Shown: positions 10,030-30,000 of the stretch, in pieces
Numbering within the stretch: the first letter of the stretch is position 1
Layout of the letters: every line of letters starts with the position of its first letter
From: Candidatus Saccharimonadota bacterium
GTDB lineage: Bacteria > Patescibacteriota > Patescibacteriia > 2-12-FULL-60-25
Assembly (NCBI GenBank): GCA_016699205.1
Contig: CP064964.1
Span: forward strand, 240,001-272,000
Length of the DNA: 32,000 nt
Reading direction: 5' to 3'
The notes under the pieces: model-generated
Databases searched by the model: none
What the model saw: only the letters and a program-made list of their open reading frames with translations
What the model was told of the DNA's origin: nothing
Translations under genes and position numbers: made by a program

Positions 10030-10683
10030 TTATTTTTCAATGATAATTCTTGTTCCTACTGGCGCCCAGTCATACATCTCCTTGGCAGCGCCTATGCCCA
10101 TACGCACGCAGCCGTGGCTTGCTGGCTTTCCGAGATGACTTGCTCCCTCTTTTTTTCCGCCCGGCCACTCAGGCAGCTCGTGTAAGCCGTGGCCGCGCGT
10201 TGTGAAAGCCATCCAAAATGGCATCCAAAGTTTTGCGCTTTTTGACCAGGCGCGCGGGTACTTGTTCAGAACCTTAAATTCTCCTACCGGCGTCGGCGTG
10301 CTTGCAAGACCGCTCGAAACTTTAAATGCCTTGACCGCAACACCACCAACGCGCTTCTCCATCGTCTGTGTTTTAAGTTTAATAAAAATGGATTTTTCCA
10401 AACGGATCGGCTCAGAACTTGTTGGCGAGTAGGCCATCAAAATTTCGAGGCCATCTTCAAAACTGTCGCCATCCGTATCTTTATTATGAATATCGGTTCC
10501 AAACTTTCTCTCGTGTATATCCAAAAGACCATCACTATCCGTATCGAGCGTATCTGGCGTAGAAGTAGCCGCGTGCGTCGGTAGCGCAACAACAAGTAGC
10601 GTCGCGCTAAGCAAGAGCCAGAACCACGAGCGCCAAGACCAGGCGGTAGATGACGAAGCCGTCGTAACGGTGTTTGGCAACAT
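10030..10683 (-). CDS. L,D-transpeptidase (YkuD family) with N-terminal Asp-rich calcium-binding-like repeats
   Basis: YkuD catalytic motif HGLHELPEW...GKPASHGCVRM. DTDSDGLLD and DTDGDSFED are DxDxDG-like motifs. The signal peptide starts from the ATG at 10683; the longer ORF to 10746 begins with TTG. Confidence 0.8.
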   Translation of the reverse strand: MLPNTVTTASSSTAWSWRSWFWLLLSATLLVVALPTHAATSTPDTLDTDSDGLLDIHERKFGTDIHNKDTDGDSFEDGLEILMAYSPTSSEPIRLEKSIFIKLKTQTMEKRVGGVAVKAFKVSSGLASTPTPVGEFKVLNKYPRAWSKSAKLWMPFWMAFTTRGHGLHELPEWPGGKKEGASHLGKPASHGCVRMGIGAAKEMYDWAPVGTRIIIEK

Positions 10684-11395
10684 AAGAGACAAGGAAACGA
10701 ATGGCGAATAGGCCAAAGCCGAGCGCCGAGATAAAACCGACGACAAGCGCGATCACTTGATCCGCGGCGATCCCCTGCTTGGTCACACTGATGAGACCGT
10801 GAAGTCCGGCAGCAGCTGTGACCGGAATCGAAAGGAAGAATGAGAAGCGCGCGGCAGCCTGACGCGTCAAACCTGCAAGCAGCCCGGCGGTAATCGTGAT
10901 ACCCGAACGGCTGGTACCTGGGAACAAAGCGAGTGGCTGAGCAAAGCCGACAGCCAATGCCTGCGTCCATGATACCGATTCATACGCATCTAGGCGACTT
11001 TTCTTGCCCTCGCTCCATCGATCAGCACCAAACAAGATGAGACCAAAAAATACAAGATCAAAAGCGACAATCCAACCTTGGCGGACATTTGCCTCGATCC
11101 AATCGTTCGCAAAGAATGCGATGATGAGGGCTGGAAGCGTTGCGACGACGACTTTCAACATGAATCCCCAAGCTTTTTTTCGAAACAAGCCGACAATATC
11201 TTCACGGAAGAACCAAAGCAGAGCGACAAGCGTACCGAGATGCAAAACCGTATCAAACGCGAGACCCTGGTCTGGCCAGCGCAGTAATACCGGAACGAGA
11301 ATCAAGTGACCGCTGGATGAAATCGGAAAAAACTCCGCCAAGCCTTGTACCGCTCCGAGCACGAAGCCGCGGACCACATCGAACAGCGTATTCAT
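10607..11395 (-). CDS. uppP: undecaprenyl-diphosphate phosphatase
   Basis: LGAVQGLAEFFPISSSGHLIL and PGTSRSGITITAGL are the two BacA/UppP signature motifs. The protein is polytopic and hydrophobic. Confidence 0.92.
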   Translation of the reverse strand: MNTLFDVVRGFVLGAVQGLAEFFPISSSGHLILVPVLLRWPDQGLAFDTVLHLGTLVALLWFFREDIVGLFRKKAWGFMLKVVVATLPALIIAFFANDWIEANVRQGWIVAFDLVFFGLILFGADRWSEGKKSRLDAYESVSWTQALAVGFAQPLALFPGTSRSGITITAGLLAGLTRQAAARFSFFLSIPVTAAAGLHGLISVTKQGIAADQVIALVVGFISALGFGLFAIRFLVSYVAKHRYDGFVIYRLVLALVVLALA

Positions 11396-11397
11396 AT

Positions 11398-13551
11398 CTA
11401 CGTATCAAACATGATGCGCTCGCCCGGAGCAACGGAACGACTTGGCGACGAAGAAGGCTGCGGCGAAGGAGCGCTTGGTGCAGCTGAACCATTTTCTGGT
11501 TTTCCGCTACCAGAGCGTCGGCGTCGGCGTTTCTTTTTTTCACCTTCTGATGAAGAAGCGGCTACAGGAGCTAGCGCCGAAGTTGGACGCGGAGGAATGG
11601 TCCCAGCGCGTTTTTCCAGCGATTGTTTATGCATGTCTACAGCACCGCCTTTGGCTTTTAAGATTTCCGTCAGCAAATCTTCCTCTTCTGGTACTTGTGA
11701 AGCAGGGACGACTTGAATCTTGGAAGCTTGTGCCGGCTCTTGAACCAAGCGAGGACGATTTGGTGCGACATTGCGCGGCGCAAAACCAGATTCGCCGACT
11801 TCTGCCTCCCCTACTCCTTCAAGCGGGACTGGAGCGCGCTTGGCCGACTTGAAACCGCTCGACTTGTTCTTGCGTTCTTCTGCGATAATCGGACGGCACT
11901 CGGCGCAATAAACAGGACGTGATGTATCGAGCTGAATGGCGAGCTCGAATTTTTTGCCGCATCGATCACAGGTGTGAGCAAAGGCTGGGCGCTTCTTTTG
12001 CTGCTGAGGAATGCTTGCCTGAATAGCCGCCAAACGCTCGGGACGGATCGTCAGATATTCCGAAGCATCGCCCTGATGCTCGAGATCGGACATGGTTTCT
12101 TTCACGGTTTCTTTGGCTGCCTGCTCCTCTTCCGTCATGATCGCTGGATACTGGATGGTTGGCGCGGTTCCAAGCGGACCTTCCTGAGTGACAGGCGTTG
12201 AAGTTGTCGCTACAAGAGTTGCTGGTGAAAGAGTACCGCCGCCAGCAGGCGTCGTTTCCATGCCGGCCCATTTCAATACTTTTTCTTCAATCACCGGACG
12301 AGGCTCGGCGTAACGCTCGCGGCTTACCGCGACGACTTTAGCCTGGCTGTCCGTACGCGCCGCGATCGGCGGGAGTGTGTTGGCGGAGAAGGGCGGCGTC
12401 GCAACACCATCGACCATGAGCTTGAGGTAGATTTGGAATTTTGTGATGTTGACCAAATCTTCCGGCGTAAAGGTCGGAGCAAATTCCGTTTCCATGGCGA
12501 GCGCATCAGCTGCACCGACGCGCATCGCGATAATTGTTCCGACGTTACCGAAAATAGCAGCAGCAACTTCTTCCTCCAATTGCTCAATATATTGATGCGC
12601 GACGATCAAATTCAAACGGAACTTGCGCGCCTCAGACAGAATCGCGGCAAATGACTCGTTAGCGAAGTTTTGGAATTCGTCGACGTAGAAGTAGAAATCT
12701 TTACGCTCCTTCTCCGGCATGTTCTGACGCTCTTGGGCTGCAAGCTGAATCTTGGTGACGATCATTCCACCAAGCAAACGCATGTTATCTTCACCAATAC
12801 GGCCCTTGGAGAGGTTGACGATAAGAATTTTTTCATCGTCCATGATGCGGCGCAGATTGATGGTCGACTTTACCTGCGCGACGATGTTACGAATGACAGA
12901 GGACGATAAAAATTGTCCAACTTTGTTTTGAACTGGCGCGATGGCTTCTGTCGCGTATTTCTCCGACCAAGAAGCAAATTCTGCAATCCAAAATGTTTTG
13001 ACGATCGGATCGCGGATTTTGGCGACGACGCGTGCACGATAGTCCTTATCGACCAAGAGACGGTTGATGCCGAGCAAGGTAGCTCCCGGATAATCAAGAA
13101 GCGCGAGTACGCAGTTCATCAAAATGTACTCCATGCGAGCACTCCAAACGTCCGGCCAAATCTTTTTGAAAACGCCCATCAAACCGGAAGCGATCAATGG
13201 CTTCTGGTCATCGTTATCTGTTTCAAGAATGTTGAAACCGACAGGAAAATCCGTGTCAGCCGGGTTGAAGTAGATGAGATCGTTAATGCGGTTTGGCGGA
13301 ATGAAGTCGAGGAGTTTCTCGGCCGTGTCTCCGTGAGGATCGATCAAACAGCAGCCATGACCCTTGATAATATCGGACAAGATAAGACTTTCGATGAGCG
13401 TCGTCTTACCCATACCGGTTTTACCGATGATGTACATGTGGCGACGACGGTCATCGGTCTTGATTCCAAAACGGCGCTTGGCATTTCTAAAATTCGTTTC
13501 CGCGAAGAACGTAATATGCTCAAGGTGATCCTGACAATTTGCTGATGCCAT
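11398..13551 (-). CDS. TraD/VirD4-like (type IV coupling protein / HerA-FtsK class) P-loop ATPase, soluble, with a C-terminal CxxC-x17-CxxC zinc ribbon and a disordered basic tail
   Basis: Walker A YIIGKTGMGKTTL. Walker B FYFYVDEFQNF. VAHQY is sensor-like. No TM segment. The zinc ribbon is CDRCGKKFELAIQLDTSRPVYCAEC. The tail contains EGEKKKRRRRRSGSG. Confidence 0.75.
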   Translation of the reverse strand: MASANCQDHLEHITFFAETNFRNAKRRFGIKTDDRRRHMYIIGKTGMGKTTLIESLILSDIIKGHGCCLIDPHGDTAEKLLDFIPPNRINDLIYFNPADTDFPVGFNILETDNDDQKPLIASGLMGVFKKIWPDVWSARMEYILMNCVLALLDYPGATLLGINRLLVDKDYRARVVAKIRDPIVKTFWIAEFASWSEKYATEAIAPVQNKVGQFLSSSVIRNIVAQVKSTINLRRIMDDEKILIVNLSKGRIGEDNMRLLGGMIVTKIQLAAQERQNMPEKERKDFYFYVDEFQNFANESFAAILSEARKFRLNLIVAHQYIEQLEEEVAAAIFGNVGTIIAMRVGAADALAMETEFAPTFTPEDLVNITKFQIYLKLMVDGVATPPFSANTLPPIAARTDSQAKVVAVSRERYAEPRPVIEEKVLKWAGMETTPAGGGTLSPATLVATTSTPVTQEGPLGTAPTIQYPAIMTEEEQAAKETVKETMSDLEHQGDASEYLTIRPERLAAIQASIPQQQKKRPAFAHTCDRCGKKFELAIQLDTSRPVYCAECRPIIAEERKNKSSGFKSAKRAPVPLEGVGEAEVGESGFAPRNVAPNRPRLVQEPAQASKIQVVPASQVPEEEDLLTEILKAKGGAVDMHKQSLEKRAGTIPPRPTSALAPVAASSSEGEKKKRRRRRSGSGKPENGSAAPSAPSPQPSSSPSRSVAPGERIMFDT

Positions 13552-13554
13552 AGA

Positions 13555-14895
13555 TTAGCCAAATGGGATATTGGCTGGGGCCTCGGACTTTTTGGCCTCG
13601 ATGCGGCGCAAGCCAGGAGCTTTGACCTGGATCAAAATCGGGAAATGCCAAAGCGTCGCCAATTCTTCCGAAGACATGAAAAACTTTGGCAAGCCAGACC
13701 AGCCGCTGCGGCTGCGGTATGCACGAACCATTTTGCTCTTGCGTTCATTGTTGCGGCGGTCCTTGAACCACCAAAGCGTACCGTTCACGCCGACTTTGGA
13801 AGACGGTTTCAACGCCTGCATATTGAAGGTATTCACCTGCTTGATCGAACCGATGAACGGTTGAACAGCTTTGGATTTTTTCATGACCTCTTTCTTGGCG
13901 ACATACAAGAAACGAATCTTGCAGTTGAATCCGATCTTGGACGCTTTGCGCTCAACTGCTTCAAGCACCAGACGCTCGCCTGGCGAGAGCTTGAGAATTT
14001 CCGGCGTACCGTCTTTCTTTTCTTCTTTACCTCCCCCTCCACCTAATGCTGAACCTAAAATCAAATTAGCGATCTCAAAAAACACATTTAACGGAACGCT
14101 CACTATTTGCTCCGCAAATGAAGGCTTGGGCGTTTCTTTAATACCCTTGATCTTCTTTACGAGAGATTCGGCGCGTTTACGGAAATCGCGCTGATCGGTT
14201 GGCTGGAGAATAATTTGATACCAAGCTTGCTCGCCAGGACCAAGACGGGAGAATGTTTCCAAAAATGCGGCCATCGGGCCTTTGAATTCACCCGAAACCT
14301 TATCCTCAAACTCCGTGTAGGTTTTGAGCGGGTACGGGTCTGGCATGACATTGGTCATTTCCGTACACCAGACATCCCACTCGTCATTAGGATATTCCGC
14401 CGGGACTTGGCGCGCGTAATCCTCGACTTCATCGATCTCTGCATCCGGATACTGTGCGTACACCGCCGCCTCAACAAGATCACGAAGGCCTTTTAGGCAA
14501 AAGATATAGTAACTAACCTGGCCGTCGATAGAGGCAATCTCAATCGACATGACGGCTTGCGACGCGCCCTGAAGCCAAGTCTCGGTCCAAGAAGGCGGAC
14601 TGTGGGCCCCGGCGAGCAAAGCAAAAAGGTTTTCAACAGCCTTTACGGTTTGTTCACTCGCCTTTGGAACGCTGATGCGGAGAAGGATCCACTCGCGCTT
14701 GGCCGCTGCTTTGTTTTGTACGTATTCCAGCCATCCGTTCTTGATCATGAACCAGAGCACCGGAATCAGTATAAGCCAGCCTCCGCTCAGAAACAGATAA
14801 ATCATGGCAGAAAATGGATCATTTCCGGCCACGTTTAAGAACGCGTCGACATTAAAATTGAGGAACGGCAAGTAGCCGATGTATTCCTCGAACAT
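13555..14895 (-). CDS. hypothetical membrane-anchored protein, partner of the TraD-like ATPase
   Basis: The N-proximal hydrophobic segment FSAMIYLFLSGGWLILIPVLWFMI is followed by about 380 aa of unassigned sequence. The stop lies 3 nt before the ATPase start. The start is placed at the ATG at 14893-14895, downstream of the secF terminator. Confidence 0.6.
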   Translation of the reverse strand: MFEEYIGYLPFLNFNVDAFLNVAGNDPFSAMIYLFLSGGWLILIPVLWFMIKNGWLEYVQNKAAAKREWILLRISVPKASEQTVKAVENLFALLAGAHSPPSWTETWLQGASQAVMSIEIASIDGQVSYYIFCLKGLRDLVEAAVYAQYPDAEIDEVEDYARQVPAEYPNDEWDVWCTEMTNVMPDPYPLKTYTEFEDKVSGEFKGPMAAFLETFSRLGPGEQAWYQIILQPTDQRDFRKRAESLVKKIKGIKETPKPSFAEQIVSVPLNVFFEIANLILGSALGGGGGKEEKKDGTPEILKLSPGERLVLEAVERKASKIGFNCKIRFLYVAKKEVMKKSKAVQPFIGSIKQVNTFNMQALKPSSKVGVNGTLWWFKDRRNNERKSKMVRAYRSRSGWSGLPKFFMSSEELATLWHFPILIQVKAPGLRRIEAKKSEAPANIPFG

Positions 14896-14901
14896 AAGAC
14901 C

Positions 14902-14910
14902 ATTATAGCA
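14902..14910 (-). promoter_or_regulatory. extended -10 promoter element (TGcTATAAT), possibly giving a leaderless transcript
   Basis: The minus strand reads gttgTGcTATAATggtcttATG. TATAAT is a perfect match with a TG extension. The A of the ATG is the 7th nt after the -10. No convincing -35. Confidence 0.4.
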
Positions 14911-14915
14911 CAACA

Positions 14916-14943
14916 AAAAATCCCCCGCATCCGGGGGATTTTT
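14916..14943 (-). terminator. rho-independent terminator after secF (A-tract/T-tract flanked, potentially bidirectional)
   Basis: aaaaatccccc / gcatcc / gggggattttt forms an 11-12 bp stem starting 1 nt after the secF TAA. Confidence 0.7.
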
Positions 14944-15851: not shown

Positions 15852-17903
15852 TTATTTCTTTCCAGAAGCAAGGAATAGCCACGGCCATTTTGCGAGCGGC
15901 GTCTTGGCCAAGGCACGCAATACCGTACGCGTGGTAACCGTAGCCGTGAACAAAGAGATGACGGTACCGAGCGCGAGCGTGAGAGCGAAACCCTTGATCA
16001 ATGACGAGGAGAACCAGAACAAGACGGCACAGGAGATCAGAATCGAGACGTGACCGTCGCGAATCGAGGTCCAGGCGCGCTTGAAGGCTTCTTCCAAGGC
16101 CGGCTCAAGCGCGAGTCCTGACTTCAATTCTTCCTTGAGACGCTCAAACACGAGCACGTTTGAGTCGATCGCCATACCGATCGAGAGAATGAAGCCGGCG
16201 ATACCGGAAAGCGTGAGCGTAATCGGTACAAGCTTGAAGGTGGCGGCGTTCAAGGCGGCGTAGATCACAAGCACGACAACGGCAGCCATACCCGGCAAGC
16301 GGTAGATCAGGATAGCGAAGATCGCGATCAAGAGGAATGCCACGAGTCCGGCGTTAATCGACTTGGTTAGCGAGTCTGCACCGAGCGTCGGGCCGACGGA
16401 TTGCTGGGCGACGAGCGTAATCGGCACTGGAAGCGCACCTGCCTGCAAACGGCGGGCAAGAAGCTTGGCTTCCTCGAGCGTGAAGTTACCTGTAATCACG
16501 GCGCGACCGCCGAGAATCTCCTGGTTCACAACCGGGGCCGAGAGCACGTTTCCGTCGAGGAAAATCGCGACCTGCTGGCCAACGTTTTTCTTCGTAAGTT
16601 CAGCAAACAACTTGCTACCCTCGTCATCAAATTGGAGCGAGACCTGGATGGAGCCGAGCTGTTGGTCAAAATCGACCTTCGCTGACTGCAGCTGCTTGCC
16701 GGTCAAAGCGGTGGCTTTCCACTCATCAACAGGAACGAAGTCGGTTGGAACGGAGCGGTTGATTTCAATCAAACGCAAGCGAGGTTCCTTGCTGATGCGC
16801 TCACCGAGTTTCCAGACGAGGTGATAACCGAATTCTGTTTCAATGACTTCGGAAATGGTTCCGGAAGCCTGGGCAAAGACTGGCGTCTCGAATTTTTCTA
16901 CCATGTCGCCCGTTCCGAACCAGCCAAGGTCACCCTTTGTTGACGTGGCGTTTGGTTCATCGGAGTTGGCAGCGACGAGGCTGTCGAAGTTTTCAATCGT
17001 GGCCTGCTTTTTAATGTCTTCGATTTTTGCTTTAGCTTCTTCTTTGGTACGCGTTGAGAGACCGCCCTGAGCACCCTGATATCCGATCAGCATGTGGTGC
17101 GCGTTCACTTCTTTCGGACCGTCCTTCAATTCTTCCATCTTTACAACGAGATAGACATTGTCGGTTTCAACGACATTCGGGAACACGGCGCCTGGCGCGA
17201 GACCGCCGACGGTGTCGAGAAGATCCTGCAAATCCTTGCTACCAGCGATGGTCGCTGCAGACAAAGCACCCGTGTCTCCCCCGTCAATTTTACGAGCGGC
17301 GTTTTCTGTTTTGTTCTTGGCGAGTTCCGCAAAATCCGTTTCCGGCTTTCTTGCTTCATCCAAAATAGCCTTGGCACGGGCAAGAGCATCCGTATTGCGC
17401 TTATCCATCTCATCCTGCTCTTCTTTGGTGAGTGGACGCGGTTTTTCCGTGTTCTTTTCCTTGAACTCAAGGATCGGCGTTTCACCGATAAGTTTGATAG
17501 CCTGGTTGACGTCGCGGATACCGGCGAGCTCCACGTTTACGCGCCATGCATCACCAGCTTGCGTAACCTGGATAACCGGCTCGGAAACGCCAAGCGAGTT
17601 GACGCGGCGCTCGATCACATCGCGGACGCCATCCATGGCTTCACGCTGTTCTGACGGCGCAACCTTGGAAACATCAGCCTCATATTCAAGCGAGGTTCCG
17701 CCCTGAAGATCAAGGCCGAGGACGAATGGCTTGTTGATCGTCGGAATATTGAGACCCGTGAGTTCGTTGACTTGGCCAACGACCCAGTTAGCAGGACCCG
17801 GGTAGGAAAGAGACCCTGCGGCAAGCAGAAGCAAGGCGAGCCAACCGAGGCGCGACATGACTGTTTTGCGGGAGGGCGTGGTTTGTCGGTTCATTCGAGA
17901 CAT
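15852..17903 (-). CDS. secD: protein translocase subunit SecD with an inserted PrsA/SurA-like chaperone plus parvulin PPIase module
   Basis: SecD motifs LGLDLQGGTSLEYE, IGETPILEFKE, VAIFLDGNVLSAPVVNQEILGGRAVITGNFTLEEAKLLARRLQAGALP and GMAIDSNVLVFERLKEE are present. A parvulin-like block lies between the P1 segments: HHMLIGYQG...GDLGWFGTGDMVEKFETPVF...EFGYHLV. Confidence 0.9.
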   Translation of the reverse strand: MSRMNRQTTPSRKTVMSRLGWLALLLLAAGSLSYPGPANWVVGQVNELTGLNIPTINKPFVLGLDLQGGTSLEYEADVSKVAPSEQREAMDGVRDVIERRVNSLGVSEPVIQVTQAGDAWRVNVELAGIRDVNQAIKLIGETPILEFKEKNTEKPRPLTKEEQDEMDKRNTDALARAKAILDEARKPETDFAELAKNKTENAARKIDGGDTGALSAATIAGSKDLQDLLDTVGGLAPGAVFPNVVETDNVYLVVKMEELKDGPKEVNAHHMLIGYQGAQGGLSTRTKEEAKAKIEDIKKQATIENFDSLVAANSDEPNATSTKGDLGWFGTGDMVEKFETPVFAQASGTISEVIETEFGYHLVWKLGERISKEPRLRLIEINRSVPTDFVPVDEWKATALTGKQLQSAKVDFDQQLGSIQVSLQFDDEGSKLFAELTKKNVGQQVAIFLDGNVLSAPVVNQEILGGRAVITGNFTLEEAKLLARRLQAGALPVPITLVAQQSVGPTLGADSLTKSINAGLVAFLLIAIFAILIYRLPGMAAVVVLVIYAALNAATFKLVPITLTLSGIAGFILSIGMAIDSNVLVFERLKEELKSGLALEPALEEAFKRAWTSIRDGHVSILISCAVLFWFSSSLIKGFALTLALGTVISLFTATVTTRTVLRALAKTPLAKWPWLFLASGKK

Positions 17904-20130: not shown

Positions 20131-20282
20131 ATGTCTTAGTCACGCATCATGGTCATTGTAAATAATGACCAGTTAGGCGTGAACGTTAGGAAATAATTAT
20201 GTTTATGATGCGTGTTTATGTATAAAACAAGCCCGATCATCCAGATCGAGCAATGGCAAGAGGATAGCAGAATGAACAGAGG

Positions 20283-20311
20283 TTGACAAGATTGGGTTTT
20301 TGGCTTAGGTT
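20283..20311 (+). promoter_or_regulatory. candidate sigma70-type promoter for the GC-rich gene
   Basis: A perfect TTGACA (20283-20288) is followed by a 17-nt spacer and a weak -10 TAGGTT (20306-20311). Confidence 0.3.
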
Positions 20312-20386
20312 GGAGCACTGTCCTTCCCAAGGGCAAGCCGATCCGGCGGTAACCGGATGTACCTTTAAAGGAGAGAGAAGATCAAG

Positions 20387-21331
20387 ATGAAGCCCGCACT
20401 CCCGACCCAGATCCCCCTCTGCGGCCGCCGTCCCCCCGTCATCGGAGCGCTCATCAACGCGATGCAGCTGCATCAGCGCCCCTTCGTCCTCATGATGCAG
20501 GAGGAGGATCGGCACGAGCTCGTCGGAACCATCAAGATGATGGCCGAGCGACTCGGACTCGTCCCCTTCCTCATCGCGGCGGATGACACCGCCACGCAGG
20601 AGCTGTACCTGCTCGACAAGGAGAGACATCTGCTCGTGATCGTGGAGACGCCCCAGTCGCGTATCCCGATCGGGATGCAGCAGTTCATCCTCGAGCGGTA
20701 CGAGCCGCCGGCGCGGAACGAGCACAAGATCGCCAAGCGCATGCGCGATGGCGCATCGCAGCGAGAGATCCAGGACAGCATCCCCAAGGCGCATCCGCCG
20801 GCAGGACTGCTCGTCGTCACCGACACCGATCCGGGCGAGCTGCTCGTGCAGAATCTCTGGACGAAGCCGTTCACCGAGCTCAAGCAGTACACGGTGCTCT
20901 GGGACAAGATGCCGCAGCGTCCCGACGCCTACACCGGCATCTTCCGTGCCGGCCTCACGCTCGCGGCTCGCGAAGCCAAGATCACGCTCGACGGCCGCGT
21001 CGACGAGGAAGCGGTGGCGCGGTACGCCCGGGTGCAGAAGATCCTCGCGAGCCACGCCCGCAAGGCCAGGGAGCGCGGAATGAGCCTCCAGGCACATCAG
21101 AACGCCGCCGAGGTCCTCGACGCGGCGCGAGACTGCGTTCTCTACATCAGCCACAAGGCGGATCGGCGGATCGACACCAACGTGATCGAGGCGCTGGTCT
21201 TCAAGGGGGTCACGGAGTCCGCCATCAAGACGACCTTCGGGCTCGCGGAGCGCCACAGCGCGCGCAAGTCGCGGCCGAGCTTCGGTCCCGACGCGCCGTT
21301 CATCGGCAAGTCCATCGCCGTCGGCGAGTAG
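20387..21331 (+). CDS. hypothetical protein (314 aa), GC-rich, compositionally foreign
   Basis: The plus-frame translation has normal protein-like composition. A purine-rich SD-like block AAAGGAGAGAGAAG lies 6-19 nt upstream. Third codon positions are almost all G/C. A strong terminator follows. The overlapping 339-aa minus ORF is R/L/G/D/H-rich and looks like an antisense shadow. Confidence 0.7.
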   Translation: MKPALPTQIPLCGRRPPVIGALINAMQLHQRPFVLMMQEEDRHELVGTIKMMAERLGLVPFLIAADDTATQELYLLDKERHLLVIVETPQSRIPIGMQQFILERYEPPARNEHKIAKRMRDGASQREIQDSIPKAHPPAGLLVVTDTDPGELLVQNLWTKPFTELKQYTVLWDKMPQRPDAYTGIFRAGLTLAAREAKITLDGRVDEEAVARYARVQKILASHARKARERGMSLQAHQNAAEVLDAARDCVLYISHKADRRIDTNVIEALVFKGVTESAIKTTFGLAERHSARKSRPSFGPDAPFIGKSIAVGE

Positions 21332-21469: not shown

Positions 21470-21493
21470 ATGTTGCCTGTGTTTAGGCAACAT
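21470..21493 (+). promoter_or_regulatory. perfect 9-bp inverted repeat overlapping the ATP-grasp start codon
   Basis: atgttgcct / gtgttt / aggcaacat. The right arm includes the first two bases of the ATG at 21492. It could be an operator palindrome or a translation-occluding hairpin. Confidence 0.4.
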
Positions 21494-22382
21494 GTGTACA
21501 AGCGTGAGGCGCACCTTGGAAAATACGATACTCATACTCACACATGAGAAAGATGATTGCGCTAAGCTGGTCATTCAGCAACTTGAACGCATGAGCGCAG
21601 ACTTCGTGCGCTTCAACACGGAGCGTTTTCACACCGAAGTCAAACTATCCCTGAGGCTCGACAAGGACGGACGCAGCGAAGGCAGTTTCCTCTTCCCTGA
21701 TCGACGCGTACGCATGCCTCATGTAGGCGTCGTCTGGAACAGGCGCGTCCATCTACCTGAACTCCCGAAGCTATTTCCAGATGAGCCCGAGCTCCAGGAA
21801 TGGATGCTCGAGGAAACCAAGTGGGCCTTCAGCATCGCGATCACGATGTTGAAATGTCCTGTGGTAAATCCCTGGGAAGACAACGAGCGTCTCAAGTTCA
21901 ACAAGATGCTCCAGATGCGGAGAGCCGCCGAACTTGGATTCGAGATCCCCGCAAGTATCCTCACCGACGAGCCCGAGGCCATCCGGCAATTCTGGGACGA
22001 AGGCGGGGGCGAAATCATCATGAAAAAGATTCGTAAGGGCCTGATTCACATGAAGAGCGGGAGGCGCGTCCTCTTTCACACGAGTCGCATTCCTCCTGAG
22101 GTGCAGACGAACGCCGCTCTGGAACGCCTGCGATTCACACCGAATCTCATGCAGACGCACATTCCCAAAAAGTGATGCATTCTGTCAGTGGTCGTCGGTG
22201 ACCAGGTCTTCACGGTCGCGATCCATTCACAAGACGTACCTGAAGGTAAGATCGACTACCGTACAGCCGGCCTGCTGGGCAAGGCGCGTGAAATGAAACA
22301 CGAGATCATTGATCTCGGTCGCGAGGCCAACGAGCGCCCCTCACTTTATTTCCTTGAATCCAAGATGCTGGTATGCGGGTAG
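21492..22382 (+). pseudogene. MvdD/MdnC-type ATP-grasp (graspetide / ribosomal peptide maturase-like), with an in-frame TGA and a truncated 3' end
   Basis: ILILTHEKDD...RFNTERFHTEVKLSL...VGVVWNRRV...KMLQMRRAAELGFEIPASILTDEPEAIRQF...RFTPNLMQTHIPKK[TGA]CILSVVVGDQVFTVAIHSQD...IDYR follows the family pattern. ORFs 21492-22175 and 22188-22382 are in the same frame, separated by a single TGA at 22173-22175. The C-terminal roughly 40 aa expected after YFLE are missing. Confidence 0.65.
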
Positions 22383-23108
22383 CTGCGAAATAACGTGGTT
22401 GAGTCCCTGCCAAACAAATAAATTTTTGTCCATTTCTTCAAAAATACGCAAAGCATTTTCCATCAAACCAAAATCTCTTGCGAGATTAATGCAGACAGCC
22501 GCTTCATTAGTTACATATGGACCGTTGGTCGGTTTCTGCGCTTCAACAATTCTCTCTATTTCAATATCGACCTCAAATATCTGATCAAAATTATTAAAAT
22601 TAATTACACCAGCCTCCTGTAAATAGTCTCGAAGCACTTCAAAGCAAGCGAGGCCGCTCTCTGCAATCTGATATTGGCCACCGATTGAACCCAAGACTTT
22701 TATCAATAACTCTTTCTTTTCGATACCGATTCTTCCGTCTTTGGCGGCACCTGATAGGAAATTTAAAAACGCCCAACCTGCAAGTGCTTTTCGATCAGCG
22801 AATACCTCTATAGCCAATGAGTTAATTCTTGCAAACGATGGCTCGATATTAAAAAAATTAATTCTTTCTTTCATCGCGATATCAATGAGCACGGCCTGTT
22901 CCCCTATTCGGGATATAGAAGCGTCGAGCATCTCCTCATCATTGTTAAGCTTATCCCCCTCCAAGCAGAGGACGAATCCCCGCTCTGAGCTTTTCAAGCT
23001 GTTTTTGAATGCTATCCCTAAGTCTAAAATTTGCCGATCATCTGGGTTACGCGTGTGCTTAGTTCCAGCTAAGACGATTTCACGCCCTCCCTTTTCAAGT
23101 ACAGACAA
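22341..23108 (-). CDS. hypothetical protein (255 aa), AT-rich; possibly 5'-truncated
   Basis: This is the only long ORF in a markedly AT-rich segment. It begins with TTG. The frame stays open for 23 more codons upstream with protein-like sequence but no canonical start. IVLAGTKHTRNPDD faintly resembles the GxxH motif of the ChaN/TIKI/TraB superfamily (low confidence). Confidence 0.5.
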   Translation of the reverse strand: MSVLEKGGREIVLAGTKHTRNPDDRQILDLGIAFKNSLKSSERGFVLCLEGDKLNNDEEMLDASISRIGEQAVLIDIAMKERINFFNIEPSFARINSLAIEVFADRKALAGWAFLNFLSGAAKDGRIGIEKKELLIKVLGSIGGQYQIAESGLACFEVLRDYLQEAGVINFNNFDQIFEVDIEIERIVEAQKPTNGPYVTNEAAVCINLARDFGLMENALRIFEEMDKNLFVWQGLNHVISQLPAYQHLGFKEIK

Positions 23109-23288: not shown

Positions 23289-23376
23289 CCGGTTACCTGT
23301 GATACGATTTGTGCAGGCCCAGAGGGAATGGTTCCCGATGGAAACCTGTGCACCTTATCTCAAGTGGAGGTTCGTC

Positions 23377-24000
23377 ATGGAGAAGCTGCGTTTCTTCCTT
23401 GCGGCCGCCTTCATGGCGGCTCTCACCGGGTGTCCCACGCCCAACCCCATGCCCGACAGCGACACGGGTACGCTGCCCACTGGAGACTCCGGGCCGGACG
23501 TCGACAGCGGAACGGATCCCGTCGATGCCTACGTTCCCCCCGGGGAAGACGGCGGCGTCGACTCGGGTACGATCCCGAACGTCTGCGAAGACGTCGACTA
23601 CGTCGGCATCGAGTGCAACCTGCCGTTCGGCATGGAGTACAACCGCGACGGGTTCATCTGCGCCGACGCGATCAACAACGACCTCTGGGTCTGCGACACG
23701 TGCTCCTCGCCTGAGCGTGAGCTCACGCATGAGGAAGGCGGAATCCTGTACTCGTTCCTCCGGTTCGCTCGCGCAAACACCGGCATGTACATGCCGGCAG
23801 GAACGGCCATGGAGTTCACCTGCGGGCCGGAAGGCCGCTGCTGGCTGAACTGGCTCAACCCGGACTCCAGCTACTCGCACTGCCGCGTCAGTTTCCAGTC
23901 CGCCTCCGGCGGCATGGGATGCGACATGGCAACAACCGAATGCTGGATGCCTGGGTCTGCAACCCCGGTCGTCAGCACCGCCGCCTACGTCGGAGAGTGA
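23377..24000 (+). CDS. Cys-rich secreted lipoprotein (207 aa), GC-rich, compositionally foreign
   Basis: GGAGG lies 6 nt upstream of the ATG at 23377. Signal peptide with lipobox MEKLRFFLAAAFMAALTG|C. A D/G/P/T-rich linker is followed by a domain with 10 Cys. A terminator follows. Other ORFs in this span are frame or antisense shadows. Confidence 0.75.
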   Translation: MEKLRFFLAAAFMAALTGCPTPNPMPDSDTGTLPTGDSGPDVDSGTDPVDAYVPPGEDGGVDSGTIPNVCEDVDYVGIECNLPFGMEYNRDGFICADAINNDLWVCDTCSSPERELTHEEGGILYSFLRFARANTGMYMPAGTAMEFTCGPEGRCWLNWLNPDSSYSHCRVSFQSASGGMGCDMATTECWMPGSATPVVSTAAYVGE

Positions 24001-24029
24001 GCTCACGCTCCTCCCCGCCCCTACCTGAA

Positions 24030-24083: not shown

Positions 24084-27000
24084 CTACGGAGCTGTACTTG
24101 TTGACACTACATTAGCTCGAAGCTGTAGCGAGCCCGGATAGACAATCCAAGGTCTACTTGTTCGGCTTGTAGAAGGTACGGGAACGGTTGGAATCGAATC
24201 CAATATATCACCCTTACACTCACTAACAGGTAGAACCAAGTTAGCTACGACGTTACTAAGTGATGAACTTGTATTGCTTCTGATGTTAGGATCTCCACCA
24301 AGAGTAGATCCCGCCCAGCAGCCACCATTTGGATGACGGACTGTTGAGGCGGTCGGGCCTACGGTGACGTCATCTGGCTGACCTCCTGTGAGACCGGCGC
24401 GGCATTCGCCAGTACACCAGCCGAAGTTGTCTTGAATCATGACACGTGGGCTAAAGCGGCAGGTGCGGATTTCTTCATCGAAACATCCGCCGACTGGAGC
24501 CAAGCCTTCGAGACAGATATCGCCAGGAGCACATTCTGAGGTAGAGCCTGGAGTGGTACAGGTGCGGTTGGTATCGCGGGAACAGCGAGGCGAGTTGGAA
24601 CAGGCAGGCAAGCCAGAGCCATCGCGAGTCGTTTGCTGCGCGCCACATGTGTACAAGTGGGCGTAGTCAAAGTAGTCGGACTGACAGGCTTCCGTGCTGT
24701 TACCGAACATCGTACGGATGTTACAGGTGTCGCGTACACCGCCGACCGTACAGTCAGTATCCTGAGAACAGGAGAGGTTGGCATTCTGTGCACAGGTTCC
24801 GATCGCCACACAGGTACCAGCACCGGCAGGACAGTCAGCGTTGGTCTGACAGGTTAATCCTGGGGTCAAAGAACATTCGCGCTGGACTCCGCAGAATGGC
24901 TTGCGGTTCTTCATGCGTGTGTCGTCGACGCGCTGGGTTGAACCATCGCCCCAATCGATCACAACTTGGCGGAGCGGCATCTGGTTATGAGCAGACCAAG
25001 CGTAGAAGCGCATGGTCGACTTGTGCGAACCGCCGCCTACGTTGATGACGCCGTCGGTTTGACCGTTGAAGGCAAAGGCATCGACGCGTGAAACAGGACA
25101 CTGACCCGGAACTGCGCAGTTACGCGTGTCCGGAGCGGCCAAACGAGGCGGACGAGGCGTGTAGTACGACATGTAGCGGAAGGTTGCTGCGCCGACACCA
25201 GATCCCGTGAAGCCGAGGAATGTCGGCGTGTACATACCGAGCGTGTGGTCGGTTGGTAACGGATGCGGACCGCTCGGATCAAGTGAACCATCCAAGCTGC
25301 GATCCGTGATGCGATAAGCGATCAAACCGCAGAATTCATCAGCCGGGTTAGGACAAATATCGATACGCGGCTGATAACCGCCGGAGTGCGTACAGATATT
25401 GTTGTCTGTATCCGGGTTGTCCGAACGATTTGGTCCGGTGTCGCTGCTGCCAGGGACGCGACAGACCGCGATCGGAGTAAAGTCTGGAGAAGGACCGGAG
25501 ACTGGAATACAGGAGTTGCGGGCGGCCACTTCTTCACCGGCAGGAAGGTTCACTTCACAAGAACCATAGGTTCCGGCGCGCGGCATTTCTACACGGCCAT
25601 CCGGGCTCGCGCGGTAGAAACAGACCTGCGTATCACGCAAACCTCCGACACAGCGACCGAGCCAGCCTGGATCCGGAGCCGCACACACCGTGGAGGCTGG
25701 GACCTCGGTGAAGTTACAGTCGCTATCCGCGCCACAGGTGTTGCGAGTTTCATCTGCTGTGAGTCCTGTTGTTGCAAACGCACTACACTTTTTGTCTGGC
25801 AAACACGTTCTTCCTTCAACACGAACCGGACAATCAAAGCTAGCGGCTTCCGGTGCGGCACAAGTTGTCGCTACGTTCGGCCCAATATTTGTCTGACATC
25901 CGAAAGCAAAGTGCGGAGCACGCCCTGCCAACTCGGTTGAAATCGGTGCTGGTAATGGGCTTGCCGTTCTGTTCCAGAATCCTGGAGAAACTTCCGTCCA
26001 GCCCACCGGGGCGCAGGCGTTAAGTAACGATGCGATTGTGCCATCTTCCTTGGTGAATGAAGGAGCCTTACAGACATCGACGCTCTCTGCACAGGAAAGC
26101 AAACGGCTGATTCCACCGCGACAGACTTTCTGCGCGATATTTTCATCTTCCGTAAGCGGCAAGGCACAGGCGCCATCGACAGAACAGGATGGCGATGCCG
26201 TCGATCCAGTAGCTTCTGGCGTACAGCGTGTTCCTTTGAACGGACCGTCGGTACAGGCACGATCAACCTTGGAGACTGGGAGGAACTGGAAGCGATAGAC
26301 GCGATAGATACGCGCGAACAAGTTGGAGAGATATGCCCACTTGTCACCCGGGACCGTGTTTGGACGATAGTAGGTCTGTGATGGCGGGGCCAAGAATGTT
26401 GGCGGATTGAGCGGCGAGAATCCGGTAATTTCCGATCCGCTCTGGAACAGCGGCTCGATGCCGGCCGGGCCCGTGTTGATTGCGCTCGAGAATGGCGAGG
26501 CGCTATCAGAATACTGGAGACCGGTTCCTGGCTCGCGGAAATCGCCACGGCGCCAGACGCGATCCGTGAAGGCGGCGTCTTGGTTGGAATTCTTACTGCG
26601 AACTTCCGCCAATTCCTTACATACGCTCGCGGTTCCGACTTCCATGTTCATGTAGATGTAACGCTGATCGCCGCCAGTGTCGCCGCCACAAGCTGAGACC
26701 CAGAAACCAACGAAGCGCCACGGACCAGCCACATTGTCTTGGGTCAAATCAGATCCGGTAGCTGTCGTATTCTCTGAACGAGATTCGAAGACGGCACGTA
26801 CAGCAAAGTATGGCTTGCTGTTTTCACAAACGCTCTGGATCGGATCGCGGCGGATATCGAGCAAACCGCGGACGATGATGTCGGTTGGCGTACCGTCTTG
26901 GCCAGCGCGCTGGAGACCAACGAATTTCTTTTGGTTGGTCGAGCGATAGTCGAGCTCCCAATACTTGATGTAACACTTAGCGTTTGGATCCGGATTTCCA

Positions 27001-30000
27001 ACGCACGAGACCTGGAACGGACGACCGCCGCGCGAGGAGTAAATACCTTCCTGTCCGCGCGTAAGATACGGGTTGTAGTTCTCGTAGAATTTATCGCGCC
27101 ATTCCGTGTCTTTTGGACGGTTTGATCCGGCATCATCGTAATTCACGCTGCCCAAGTTATCGACCCAGGCGGCCTGATATCCACATGCGATGCGGCCGTG
27201 AGGGCCCTTGATCGGATCGATCTTGAAGTACGAGATCGTGTTGTCGCTCAATCCTGATTCAAAGAACTGCGTGCGGCGTGCGCGGAATGCCGGATCGCTG
27301 CTCATATACTCACTCGTATCCTCTTCTGAGCCATCTACACTTCCGTCAACGTTGCCCGGTTTCGGTGCACCAAGCAACTGAAGCTGTTGAGCGAGGTTAT
27401 CGTCATTGGTGCGCAGGAAGTATTCACCGTATCCAGCGCCGGCGTCGACAAGGCGGATGCCGTAAGAATCGTTTTCATTGGCGCCTCCGGAAATTTCATC
27501 AAAGGACCCATCATCGTCTTGGTCATCGTCAGCCAATTCACAATCGGTGGTTGCCGTGTAATACGACTCCGGCTTTGCTCCAAAGATAGAAGCAAAGTAG
27601 TTTTGATCTTCACCAAGAATACCGCTGTTGTCGGCCGAGACCCAGTCGTCACGATAATCAATTTTTGTCATCCAACCAGCAAAGAAGCGCAGGCGGCCAC
27701 GACGATCTCCGCCAAAGATACTACCCGGACCGTGATCCCAATCATCATCACCCGCGTAATGCATATTTGCCGGTTTCACCTCTGCGTTTCCGTCACCAGG
27801 TCCGTTCTGCGGACTATTGAATTGCGAGAACGAGGTCCAGATGAAGCGGGCCTTGGTCGGCTTCTTCACCGGAGAAACACAGTAGTACTGACCGGAGTTT
27901 TGCGGCGGCAAGTAACCAGAAGTTGGTTGATAGTGGAACGAGTCTTTATCGCCAAAGAGAATTGGGGTTGGATTCCATGTCAAACATGGCTTGTTCGCCT
28001 GATCTTCACCGATAATGCGCGTTTCATCGCGCTCCAAACACTGGCCAAATACACCGCGGATGATTTCAAGCTTGTTGAATGCGACACAGCGACCGCCTCC
28101 TTCTGGCGCGCCACAAGTCTGCGCAGCATTGGAACCTTCCACGCCCTGCACAAGCTCTTGGGTTTCAGTTCCACCTGAGCTTGCAGCTGGAGCTGTGCGG
28201 CCGCCTTGCGTTTGAATCTGGAAGATGGTTGCCGGCAAGCAAGCTTGACCATCGCGAGGACCGCCCTGACAGATTCCTGGCGGAACATCTTGGGACAATG
28301 AACTGAAAAATTTGCTGAAGGCAGTTGAACCGTACTGAGCACGCTTATAGTTACAGACGCAGTCTTCTCCGAATTCACAAGTGTTGGCGCTGTTGAAACC
28401 TCCAAGCTTGCTGACTGGTTTTGGCGGATTCGTCGTGAGATCCCATTCTGTCACGTAGCTTTGACCAAATGGAGAATCTGCTTCCGGATTCACACGACAC
28501 TCGGCCGGAGGGAAGGAGTTGGTCAGAGTCGGATCGACGCGCGGATCATCGAGAGAGAAACGCGTTGAGACATTCTGGAAATTAGTGTTGTCACCGCCTG
28601 ATTTTACCGGGAGATAGCAGTTAACGACGGACTTGTTAGCAATTCCAGAGGCGAACAATTCCGTAGAGAGGTAATAACCAATGATACCTGTTCCAACATG
28701 CTGACAGAGATTCAGATCAGGATTTGCAAGCTGAACAGGCGTTCCCGTTAATGGACGGGCGTCATTAGGTCCGAAGGTAGCACGAACTCTGTACAAGCTT
28801 CCGAAACGATCAAGCGGAATTTGAACCGCTGCTGCAAGACGGTAATCAAGTGCAAAACGGTACTTGTTGTCATCGACATTGTTTGCACCTTCCGAACCTA
28901 CGCGAGCTGTTACAAGCTCAGGAATCTGGAATGTGTCCGGAACAGCGTAACCGGAGTAGTCTTTTTCACCCAAACCAACTGGACGCTCCGTATAACTTGC
29001 GATGTCGAAGAATTTACCGCGCTGCATGACGACTTCGTCCTCGGAATCGCGATCGACGTAGTTAGCGCAGAAAATTTCACCTGGGCGGTTGGTGGATTTA
29101 TCGCACAATGCCACATTGGTACAGATTTCCTTGTAGCGGCTTGTGGCAGGATCAAATACCGATTCACTTGAACGACAGCCGAGCCACTGAGCACAGTCAC
29201 GGTCAACCTTCACTTTGAGTAACACGTTAGCATCGTTTTCCTCTGCGAGAACGGCTTCACAAGCCGGATCCGTCGGGTTGCGGAAACAGTCAACAGGAAC
29301 CGTCGGTCGGAAGTCGTTGTTCTCGTACTTGTTATAGGAGGCAGCGACATTGTATTTGAGAATCGGATCCGTCATGTCGCGCATAAGCACACAGCCTTGG
29401 CCAACATCGACATTGCCCTGACAGGTCGTCTTATCGAGACGATCGTCGTTTACAAAGAAGTATGGTTTGCCCGTTCGATGAAGCGGGTCGCTTGTGTCGT
29501 TGATATCGCGGAATTCCGTACATTCCGAGGCAGAACCAGGACAGAGACCTGTCCAACCAGCCCAGATCGGATCGCCGCGCTTAGGCAACGGGAAATTACG
29601 GCCGCCTTCCAAGGCTTCCGGATAACATGGCTTGGCAGGACTTGAACCTTGTCGGAACCAGCCATCGTATTCCGCTTCCGGCAAGGTATCGAGCAGTGCG
29701 CCGTCTGCGGCGGTGAAGTCATCACCGGACAAGCGGACGCCTTGGCGGAATTCACAAACTTTGCGCTGCGGATCGCGGAAGTAGTCGTTGGCGCCGCCGT
29801 ACTTATATTCTTCACAGAATTCCTCGGATGGCTTACAGAGCGCATCGCCGTACTTGGTGATGTCATCCTTATAATAGACGGTCTGATACGACTCGATGCT
29901 GGAGCGATCAACGGAATAGACCGGCTTTCCGAAAGCGCGACAAGAGGCGTTCTCGCGCTGACAGACCTTAGACTGGTCGTACACGACGTAAATCATGCGG

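Follow-up and report, generated by a model that had tools for sequence, protein, structure and literature searches.

Introduction

Canonical type IV coupling proteins (T4CPs), such as TrwB of R388, VirD4, TraD and DotL, carry a P-loop motor and an N-terminal transmembrane (TM) domain in the same chain, and are linked to relaxase and type IV secretion system (T4SS) genes. Several of them also show acidic C-terminal tails (PMC7434980). A recognised subclass is composed of TM-less T4CPs with a membrane partner, such as TraJ/TraI of pIP501 and the TraG-TraJ pairs of the R27 type (PMC7434980). Here we analyse a pair of adjacent genes from a patescibacterial chromosome, a membrane protein followed by an ATPase, which can be compared with both classes. 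The pair is encoded in a stretch of 32,000 nucleotides (hereafter, the window) from the assembly GCA_016699205.1 of a Candidatus Saccharimonadota bacterium (contig CP064964.1, positions 240,001 to 272,000), where a first-pass annotation, made from the sequence alone, had described it as a split coupling protein and as the top candidate for an undescribed system.

The T4SS of Patescibacteria descends from the conjugation systems of monoderm bacteria, with MPF-FATA ancestry, and harbours a VirB4 clade of its own (PMC12102498). In the survey of Quinonero-Coronel et al. 2025, T4CP homologues were reported in 2,918 of 3,035 patescibacterial genomes (96%) and VirB4 in 2,417 of them (80%), but only 148 of the 5,713 T4CP homologues (2.6%) were found near virB4, and the authors considered that exaptation was possible (PMC12102498). 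In S. epibionticum, the T4CP homologue was non-essential, whereas the T4SS was essential (PMC12102498). A VirD4-like ATPase devoted to a cellular function is known from the Sulfolobales, where CedD, encoded apart from the other ced genes, takes part in DNA import, as shown experimentally; some CedD orthologues lack a TM domain, and their binding to the membrane has been proposed to occur via other factors (PMC11823120).

Results

Comparison with single-chain coupling proteins indicates that the two patescibacterial proteins are, with high probability, the two halves of a T4CP. The T4CPs of Streptomycetaceae show one TM helix, a DUF8128 domain and the same motor as the pair, but in one polypeptide: among their homologues of about 800 aa, 118 of 120 carry precomputed PF26449 (DUF8128) followed by PF10412 (TrwB_AAD_bind), and many of them also PF01935 (DUF87) and/or PF12696 (TraG-D_C). 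In the 812-aa protein encoded by a plasmid of Embleya sp. NBC_00896 (WP_331738717), which is named 'type IV secretory system conjugative DNA transfer family protein', a TM segment (aa 34-56) precedes a region (aa 79-393) colinear with the partner columns 76-449, and the motor starts at around aa 415. This protein is encoded between a VirB4-like ATPase (AAA_10, TraC_F_IV) and a replication-relaxation protein, in a cluster that also contains TrbL/VirB6-like, PrgI/VirB3 and NlpC/P60 genes. Comparison of the window motor with the Streptomycetaceae/Embleya motor by hhalign gave 100% probability (E 1e-46), and the segment SxxELAxLxHxP...APxLxR...PPxxIP is kept in the fused proteins as the last conserved element before the motor. 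Moreover, a 913-aa protein from a B. subtilis plasmid shows N-terminal similarity to DUF8128 (hhalign probability of 78%), and its gene precedes those of a replication-relaxation protein, TcpE and a VirB4-like ATPase.

As Streptomycetaceae carry the TM helix, DUF8128 and the motor in one chain, this Rosetta-stone fusion backs the first-pass reading of a split coupling protein, and the pair would be the two-gene form of a T4CP subclass that occurs as a single chain in monoderm conjugative elements. The monoderm origin of these fused relatives matches the published ancestry of the patescibacterial T4SS, and the location of the relatives outside Patescibacteria in T4SS/relaxase clusters shows where the pair came from. 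The patescibacterial pair itself is encoded outside such clusters, so that its distribution is not that of genes restricted to integrated conjugative elements (ICEs) or plasmids. On the other hand, proteins of about 800 aa leave no room for the tail of about 300 aa that follows the motor in the window ATPase, and in Embleya the profile alignment stops at aa 782 of 812; judging from their length, and not from a motif search, the fused relatives presumably lack the zinc ribbon and the basic tail described below.

Relatives of the motor domain were found on 450 plasmid records from Streptomyces, Bacillus, Clostridium, Staphylococcus, Pseudomonas, haloarchaea and Sulfolobus, and a tblastn search of plasmids with DUF8128 gave no match. 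In the motor relatives from haloarchaea (1193 aa) and Bradyrhizobium (708 aa), the N-terminal region is not DUF8128-like, which indicates that this motor clade carries several different N-terminal modules. The closest motor relative outside Patescibacteria (41% identity, E 4e-95) is encoded by the plasmid NZ_CP081110 of the roseobacter Sulfitobacter mediterraneus (L081 7953-9140) as a stand-alone protein of 395 aa, beside transposases and with no DUF8128 gene, and may represent a horizontal transfer of the motor domain alone.

By its sequence, the second gene of the pair encodes a P-loop motor of the TrwB/VirD4 class with no membrane segment. Among Pfam families, the ATPase matches TrwB_AAD_bind with 49.4 bits (cut-off 20.5) over aa 32-346 and profile positions 11-311 of 387, TraG-D_C with 26.6 bits (cut-off 22) and DUF87 with 27.9 bits, above its cut-off although over only some 40 residues around the P-loop. 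The alignment with TrwB_AAD_bind is uninterrupted across the region between Walker A and Walker B, the position of the all-alpha insert. A sequence search of the PDB gave DotL and TrwB as the closest solved relatives, and hhalign assigned the motor to TrwB with 93.8% probability (E 1.8e-7), as compared to 2.5% for TrwK/VirB4. Within NCBIfam, the ATPase matches only T4CP-type families (SXT_TraD, VirD4-like CD1115, CedD and TraD), all of them far below cut-off; equivalog and subfamily scores (TraD, VirD4-like CD1115, TrbC) were of 18-45 bits, and cut-offs of 250-800 were not reached. NCBI lists a 717-aa protein of identical sequence under the name 'type IV secretion system DNA-binding domain-containing protein [Candidatus Uhrbacteria]', and gives the same generic name to TrwB. 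At least 8000 homologues were detected, all at E <= 0.001, and in a set of 120 of them Walker A is kept in 116 and Walker B in all. The maximum mean hydropathy over 19 residues (Kyte-Doolittle, 1.57) lies below TM level. The first-pass annotation was thus right about the two open reading frames (ORFs) and their coordinates, the Walker motifs, the lack of a TM segment and the coupling-protein-like character of the ATPase. Two other ATPase identities were considered and rejected: FtsK/SpoIIIE, as PF01580 scored 15.3 bits (cut-off 24), with the P-loop only, and the ATPase has no TM segments as compared to a polytopic membrane domain; and HerA, given the short DUF87 match, a partner model unlike HerA and the absence of an adjacent NurA-like gene.

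The C-terminal tail of the ATPase is low-complexity and variable, with the exception of a few elements. The CxxC-x17-CxxC pattern of the zinc ribbon is present in 119 of 120 homologues and in 60 of the 67 complete ORFs of species representatives, whereas a run of at least four K/R residues occurs in 88 of 120. The consensus at the very end of the protein, PG[EQ][RK][IV]xF(D), was judged by eye from a sample of the 120 homologues and is uncounted; this conserved peptide may constitute a second tethered short motif, besides the one of the partner. The first-pass annotation had mentioned none of these tail elements, nor the C-terminal motif of the partner or the extended -10-like box described below.

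The first gene encodes a member of DUF8128, in which a single TM helix is combined with a large domain of predicted cytoplasmic location. The first-pass annotation could not assign this protein to any family, and searches of our local Pfam and NCBIfam copies likewise gave no match, the PF26449 model being absent from that Pfam copy. However, homologues of 53-96% identity carry precomputed PF26449, and a syntenic 441-aa orthologue in CP060222 is labelled PF26449:DUF8128, so that these consistent labels place the partner in DUF8128. Since the homologues are 444-449 aa long, the ATG start giving 446 aa is preferred over a longer ORF starting at TTG. The TM prediction gave a single helix, in agreement with the bitopic protein proposed before, with a short acidic flank on its N side (0 K/R and 4 D/E) and 5 K/R on its C side; according to the positive-inside rule, these charges predict an N-out/C-in topology, with the body of about 380 aa in the cytoplasm.

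More than 2,110 homologues of the partner were found at E <= 1e-3, and all the named matches belong to Uhrbacteria/Patescibacteria, with the exception of one 'Verrucomicrobiae bacterium', which is probably mis-binned. A search of 1.84 billion cluster representatives with the partner profile retrieved 2,665 clusters (50% identity) at E <= 1e-3 and 893 at E <= 1e-30, and among the best 150 clusters, with lengths of 240-691 aa, none was fused to an ATPase. The numbers of homologues of both proteins are far beyond chance. The C-terminal motif of the partner, PPxN[IL]P followed by a hydrophobic residue, occurs within the last nine residues of 109 of 120 close homologues and of 125 of 149 representatives at 50% identity, over a background of 0.45% per scanned window. 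Long forms of the partner keep it at the C-terminus in 37 of 40 cases, after an acidic spacer rich in E/P/A/K which follows the domain and separates it from this second copy of the motif. The motif is a candidate docking peptide for the ATPase, and both terminal motifs of the pair look like tethered docking peptides.

Bacterial SSB proteins end in a C-terminal tip of sequence DDDIPF/DDDLPF. The PPxN[IL]PF terminus of the partner, often placed after acidic residues and a disordered spacer, resembles this tip in position and chemistry, but the resemblance may be superficial, as the residue after the Phe varies.

In predicted structures, the fold of DUF8128 matches the N-terminal part of VirB4. 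When the AF2 model of the partner (pLDDT 76.5, pTM 0.72) was compared with the PDB using Foldseek, its top 13 matches were all TrwK/VirB4 chains of R388 (probability 1.0, E 3e-5 to 8e-4, TM-scores of 0.32-0.38), which were also its only confident PDB matches. Structures of TrwB, of HerA, of the C-terminal domain of VirB4 alone or of RecA alone were absent among the top 50 PDB matches listed for the partner, and this absence of motor-only entries suggests that the likeness concerns the N-terminal part of VirB4. For a natural fusion, the model (P0394; pLDDT 76.3, pTM 0.52) shows in its N-half the same order of secondary structure elements as the partner, and as a whole matches full-length VirB4 over 806-835 columns (E ~1e-10, TM-score ~0.3). 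Its C-terminal half resembles TrwB (TrwB-deltaN70) with target-normalised TM-scores of 0.54-0.58 and 18-20% identity, and contains a helical block (H498-H610) between the Walker motifs. At the sequence level, hhalign found no signal between DUF8128 and TrwK (0.1%), TrsD, TrsE or the VirB4-like protein of Embleya, and the DUF8128 profile gave only chance-level matches among PDB sequences. The pair could therefore be described as a T4CP-type motor joined to a module that, in the structural models, is similar to the N-terminal part of VirB4.

The pair belongs, as one unit, to the fixed core of the chromosome and not to mobile elements. Its neighbourhood was surveyed in 80 loci, one per different GTDB species, of which 78 were informative, with sequence present downstream of the partner, and in all 78 the ATPase follows the partner, with a median gap of 21 nt (range from -18 to 833 nt), which supports the earlier proposal of a single unit. 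A stop-codon read-through at the junction was rejected, as the stop is TAA and, with such gaps, a shared frame is not general. Median identity to the window proteins across species was 64% for the ATPase and 53% for the partner, as compared to 55% for SecD, 66% for AlaRS and 77% for NusA, and no relatives were found in the viral contigs of IMG/VR. These housekeeping levels of identity agree with the first-pass statement that the pair is not a mobile-element relic, and a phage origin was discarded from the IMG/VR result. SecD-SecF lie upstream of the pair in most of the 80 loci, several of them with about 40% identity, and in the closer genomes synteny extends over the whole block from nusA to alaS (nusA, rlmN, mnmA, alaS). 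Several loci have 1-6 kb inserted between secF and the pair, and in a Falkowbacteria locus (L075) the pair is retained among neighbours which are all different (ClpB, a sigma-like gene, Fic and glycosyltransferases), with no Sec, cell-wall, relaxase or T4SS genes recognised near it.

The pair seems to have its own transcriptional start. A candidate intrinsic terminator would separate secDF from the pair, and an extended -10-like box precedes the partner gene. The pattern TGnTAnnnT, ending 4-11 nt before the start codon, was found in 31 of 73 partner genes as compared to 0 of 76 ATPase genes, and the secD, yidC, mnmA and alaS genes of related loci lack it altogether. The presence of the box only before the first gene, together with the terminator after secF, supports a transcription unit starting at the partner, as the first-pass annotation had supposed. 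No Shine-Dalgarno motif was found before the partner gene of the window, and one was recognised in only 1 of 73 related loci; the DUF8128 gene is probably expressed as a leaderless or near-leaderless mRNA. Similar motifs are also rare before the other genes checked in related loci.

The window as a whole is ordinary patescibacterial chromosome, with RpoA, S4, AlaRS, MnmA, a radical-SAM enzyme, an S11 carboxypeptidase, YkuD, BacA, the pair, SecF, SecD, YidC and NusA (Table 1). The pair is flanked by SecD, SecF and YidC upstream, and by BacA/UppP, a YkuD L,D-transpeptidase and an S11 DD-carboxypeptidase downstream, with 2 nt between the stop codon of the ATPase and the start codon of uppP. As the first-pass annotation had stated, no relaxase, VirB4 or integrase was found among the proteins of the window, and its GC content shows no marked shift. 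Neither tRNAs nor Rfam elements were detected in the window, and there are no repeats of note.

Several other features of the window may be mentioned. The YkuD ORF starts at a TTG and shares about 140 nt with the end of uppP, and the true start of the L,D-transpeptidase is probably further downstream than this TTG. SecD measures 681-683 aa, including its syntenic orthologue (L086 5583-7628), in which parvulin-type PPIase domains (Rotamase, Rotamase_3) are found between SecD_1st and the P1 head; the corresponding stretch of the window protein reads '...GDLGWFGTGDMVEKFE...GYHLVWK', and by its sequence it looks like a SecD with an embedded foldase. An ORF of 227 aa matches the MvdD pre-ATP-grasp domain (1.2e-15), a domain of the ligases of microviridin-type RiPPs (ribosomally synthesised and post-translationally modified peptides), and the three ORFs beside it show no Pfam matches. 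Finally, a single ORF of 2,627 aa, with no Pfam match at E <= 1e-3, may encode a giant surface or host-interaction protein, of a type common in Patescibacteria.

Table 1. Positions of the gene pair, its motifs and other features of the 32-kb window.
Feature	Position	Strand	Description	Basis
ATPase gene	11398-13551	-	717 aa	ORF list
Motor domain	12307-13464	-	Nucleotide-binding domain, ~aa 30-415 of the ATPase	TrwB_AAD_bind alignment
Walker A	13402-13425	-	GKTGMGKT, aa 43-50
Walker B	12664-12696	-	FYFYVDEFQNF, aa 286-296
Zinc ribbon	11896-11970	-	CxxC-x17-CxxC, aa 528-552, in an otherwise variable tail
Basic run	11515-11538	-	KKKRRRRR, aa 672-679
C-terminal end motif of the ATPase	11401-11430	-	APGERIMFDT (consensus PG[EQ][RK][IV]xF(D))	Sample of C-termini
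Partner/ATPase junction	13552-13557	-	TAA-TCT, then the ATG of the ATPase	Sequence read
Partner gene	13555-14895	-	DUF8128 (PF26449) membrane subunit, 446 aa from ATG
Extreme C-terminal motif of the partner	13558-13581	-	APANIPFG (consensus PPxN[IL]P-hydrophobic)
TM helix of the partner	14743-14814	-	FSAMIYLFLSGGWLILIPVLWFMI, aa 28-51, single	Hydropathy, flank charges
Extended -10-like box	14902-14910	-	TGCTATAAT, ends 6 nt before the ATG of the partner
Candidate intrinsic terminator	14916-14943	-	Hairpin CCCCCGGATGCGGGGG + TTTTTT, right after the secF stop	Terminator scan
YkuD ORF	10030-10746	-	L,D-transpeptidase, TTG start
uppP	10607-11395	-	BacA/UppP
secD	15852-17903	-	SecD
ORF	20237-21256		No Pfam match
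MvdD-like ORF	21492-22175	+	227 aa
ORF	22341-23108		No Pfam match
ORF	23293-24006		No Pfam match
Giant ORF	24084-31967	-	2,627 aa

Discussion

The pair is a real, conserved and functionally coherent two-gene unit, and the structural reading of the first-pass annotation was right. Compared to canonical T4CPs, the window ATPase shares the P-loop motor and the matches to TrwB_AAD_bind and TraG-D_C, but it lacks the TM domain in its own chain, the TM helix being supplied by the upstream DUF8128 protein; no relaxase or T4SS genes are found beside it, and its extension carries a zinc ribbon and a basic run where several canonical T4CPs have acidic tails. The gene arrangement and the topology fit with the two-polypeptide T4CPs such as TraJ/TraI of pIP501, in which a coupling ATPase depends on a membrane protein, encoded by an adjacent gene, for its attachment to the membrane, and the fused form of Streptomycetaceae points to a joint function of the two proteins. 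However, the partners of the pIP501 and TraG-J types are, according to their descriptions, small membrane proteins of plasmid-borne systems (around 200 aa, with up to five TM segments in TraJ of the TraG-J type), whereas the DUF8128 protein has 446 aa, one TM helix and a large, predicted cytoplasmic domain similar to the N-terminal part of VirB4.

On balance, we lean towards a split T4CP which works with a chromosomal T4SS. DUF8128 would tether a hexameric ATPase ring to the cytoplasmic face of the membrane and adapt it to a membrane conduit, a role equivalent to that of the VirB4 N-terminal domain towards VirB3/VirB8, and its C-terminal PPxNIPF peptide would be the candidate docking element. 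The ATPase would hydrolyse NTP to receive the substrate and feed it into the conduit, whereas the zinc ribbon, the basic run and the terminal motif would be a patescibacterial addition acting as a receptor for substrates or adaptors, plausibly for nucleic acid. The conduit would most probably be a chromosomal T4SS of the monoderm type encoded elsewhere in the genome, as in most Patescibacteria. With VirB4 in 80% and T4CPs in 96% of the genomes, and with T4CPs often unlinked from virB4, a T4SS is the most economical candidate for this conduit.

Several observations weigh against this picture. Three of them suggest that the pair may not depend on a T4SS: T4CP homologues are present in more genomes than VirB4, few of them are located near virB4, and the homologue of S. 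epibionticum is non-essential in a bacterium whose T4SS is essential; these points would apply if the published T4CP homologues are of the DUF8128-linked type. The other points concern the evidence from relatives and models. The comparison of DUF8128 with the N-domain of the Streptomycetaceae proteins by hhalign gave a probability of only 32% (E 5e-4), a modest significance attributable to the shallowness of both profiles, and the case for the fusion is thus carried mainly by the precomputed Pfam assignment and by colinearity. Likewise, the likeness of DUF8128 to the VirB4 N-domain exists only at the fold level, with TM-scores of 0.32-0.38 and no sequence signal, the domain arrangement of the fused model is uncertain, as its pTM value indicates, and the zinc ribbon scores below the curated thresholds (zf_Tbcl_2, 21.9 bits with a cut-off of 27; TIGR04272, 18.9 bits with a cut-off of 36).

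The main rival explanation is an exapted autonomous translocase, that is, a descendant of coupling proteins which would now act, free of any T4SS, as a housekeeping nucleic-acid motor tethered to the membrane. Its candidate roles would be the handling of incoming host DNA or RNA, or DNA and chromosome transactions at the membrane, with the tail binding nucleic acid. The excess of genomes with T4CPs over those with VirB4, the rarity of T4CPs near virB4, the dispensability of the S. epibionticum homologue and the exaptation already raised for these proteins (PMC12102498) all speak for it, as do the housekeeping-level conservation of the pair and the conservation of the zinc ribbon and the basic run, presumably absent from the conjugative relatives of around 800 aa. 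CedD offers a precedent of a domesticated VirD4-like DNA-import ATPase encoded apart from its partners (PMC11823120), and Patescibacteria depend on host nucleic acids (bioRxiv 10.64898/2026.06.21.733656). However, a ring ATPase with a single-TM partner shows no evident channel, CedD still works with the Ced machinery (PMC11823120), the incompleteness of metagenome-assembled genomes could explain part of the excess of T4CPs over VirB4, and the zinc ribbon, as stated above, is sub-threshold. An autonomous motor is possible, if doubtful. A more extended version of the same idea is rather unlikely. The pair would have been domesticated into an essential-like housekeeping nucleic-acid motor, free of conjugation and perhaps of the T4SS, with a tail capturing DNA or RNA (for example, host-derived, for nucleotide-auxotrophic epibionts); separately, DUF8128-bearing T4CPs would keep a VirB4-like two-domain architecture and thus constitute a structural link between VirB4 and VirD4.

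A different possibility is that the pair is no coupling protein but a split equivalent of VirB4, formed by an N-domain protein and a motor, similar to TrsD-TrsE of pSK41/pGO1. TrsD is a remote homologue of the VirB4 N-terminal part (PMC12102498), and in pSK41 (L088 25886-28602) trsD immediately precedes trsE, the gene of the VirB4-type ATPase, in parallel with the DUF8128-then-T4CP order. Moreover, VirB4 chains are the only confident PDB matches of the partner model, full-length TrwK can be aligned with the fused homologue, and the order of N-domain and motor in TrwK is colinear with that of DUF8128 and the ATPase, although VirB4 holds both domains in one chain and the patescibacterial parts are separate polypeptides. 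The sequence of the motor is, however, of the T4CP type and not of the VirB4 type: besides the hhalign preference for TrwB over TrwK, the ATPase has no CagE_TrbE_VirB or AAA_10 match, and the NCBIfam family VirB4_CagE scores 16.9 bits versus a cut-off of 643. The Embleya cluster encodes a distinct VirB4-like ATPase besides the fused protein, DUF8128 has no sequence similarity to TrsD or TrsE, and Patescibacteria already possess their own VirB4 clade (PMC12102498), all of which makes a split VirB4 very unlikely.

Even less probable is a role of the pair in the service of the flanking Sec/YidC or cell-wall genes, for example in the extraction or delivery of envelope proteins or precursors. The frequent presence of SecD-SecF directly upstream, together with the tight spacing between the ATPase and uppP, would fit with such a role, and the first-pass annotation had indeed placed the pair inside a Sec/cell-wall operon. 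The flanking genes are as it stated, but the synteny extends along a lengthy block of housekeeping genes with no relation to these functions (nusA, rlmN, mnmA and alaS), and this setting is probably an inherited gene order. In addition, a candidate terminator and a candidate promoter of its own lie between secF and the pair, several loci have kilobases inserted at that point, the Falkowbacteria pair does without Sec or cell-wall genes, and the homologues of known context are all linked to T4SSs.

Two last explanations are hardly credible. The pair could be a non-functional remnant of an integrated conjugative element or plasmid, as its closest relatives outside Patescibacteria are found in T4SS clusters of plasmid or ICE type or beside transposases, but its ORFs are intact and their Walker motifs almost invariably kept, the proteins show 64% and 53% cross-species identity at a fixed chromosomal position, and the window contains no integrase, relaxase, notable repeats or GC shift. 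The pair could also be an anti-phage defence module built on a HerA/mad8-type ATPase, given a PADLOC match to mad8 of the MADS system (67 bits, aa 35-372), weak HerA matches and the many plasmid relatives in Pseudomonas, but MADS is an operon of eight genes (mad1-mad8) whose other seven members are absent beside the pair, as are a nuclease and a methylase, the partner has no PADLOC match, and a near-universal, syntenic and vertical conservation is unlike that of defence islands. Motor relatives are carried by 127 Pseudomonas plasmid records, and these, together with the mad8 match, suggest that defence systems, too, have recruited motors of this T4CP-like clade.

The split T4CP described here is only in part new. 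Two-polypeptide T4CPs (PMC7434980), unlinked patescibacterial T4CP homologues (PMC12102498) and DUF8128 as a Pfam family are already known, and the claim of an undescribed system was overstated. The T4CP homologues of Quinonero-Coronel et al. 2025, which are VirD4-type, chromosomal and rarely near virB4, are very probably the same genes, a correspondence drawn from their description; that work gives no partner gene, DUF8128, relation between split and fused forms, or zinc-ribbon tail (PMC12102498). The main text of Wang et al. 2023 makes no mention of VirD4 or T4CP, and no paper was found for 'DUF8128' or 'PF26449' in the literature searched. CedD is similar to the pair in being chromosomal, domesticated and located away from its machinery, but it is archaeal, no DUF8128 partner has been described for it, and its NCBIfam family matches the ATPase weakly over the P-loop region (31 bits, with a cut-off of 600). 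In the searchable literature, we found no description of the partnership of DUF8128 with the motor or of its equivalence to the T4CPs that form a single chain in actinobacteria, nor of the resemblance of the DUF8128 fold to VirB4, the tail with the zinc ribbon or the terminal motifs.

Much of the uncultured diversity of bacteria belongs to the Patescibacteria, and no T4SS before theirs had been shown to be essential for the growth of its own carrier bacterium. In this context, a near-universal 'orphan' T4CP homologue gains an obligate membrane partner, the DUF8128 protein, and a shared origin with the single-chain T4CPs of actinobacterial conjugative elements, to which the pair would be equivalent. 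DUF8128 receives a first assignment, as the membrane and adaptor module of a T4CP subclass, and its predicted VirB4-like fold bears on the relationship between the ATPase families of T4SSs. The gained zinc-ribbon and basic tail and the two terminal peptide motifs are testable elements, which could be used for mutation or as bait. Finally, if the pair were independent of the T4SS, it would follow the archaeal CedD as a second example of a conjugation motor taken over for a role in the cell.

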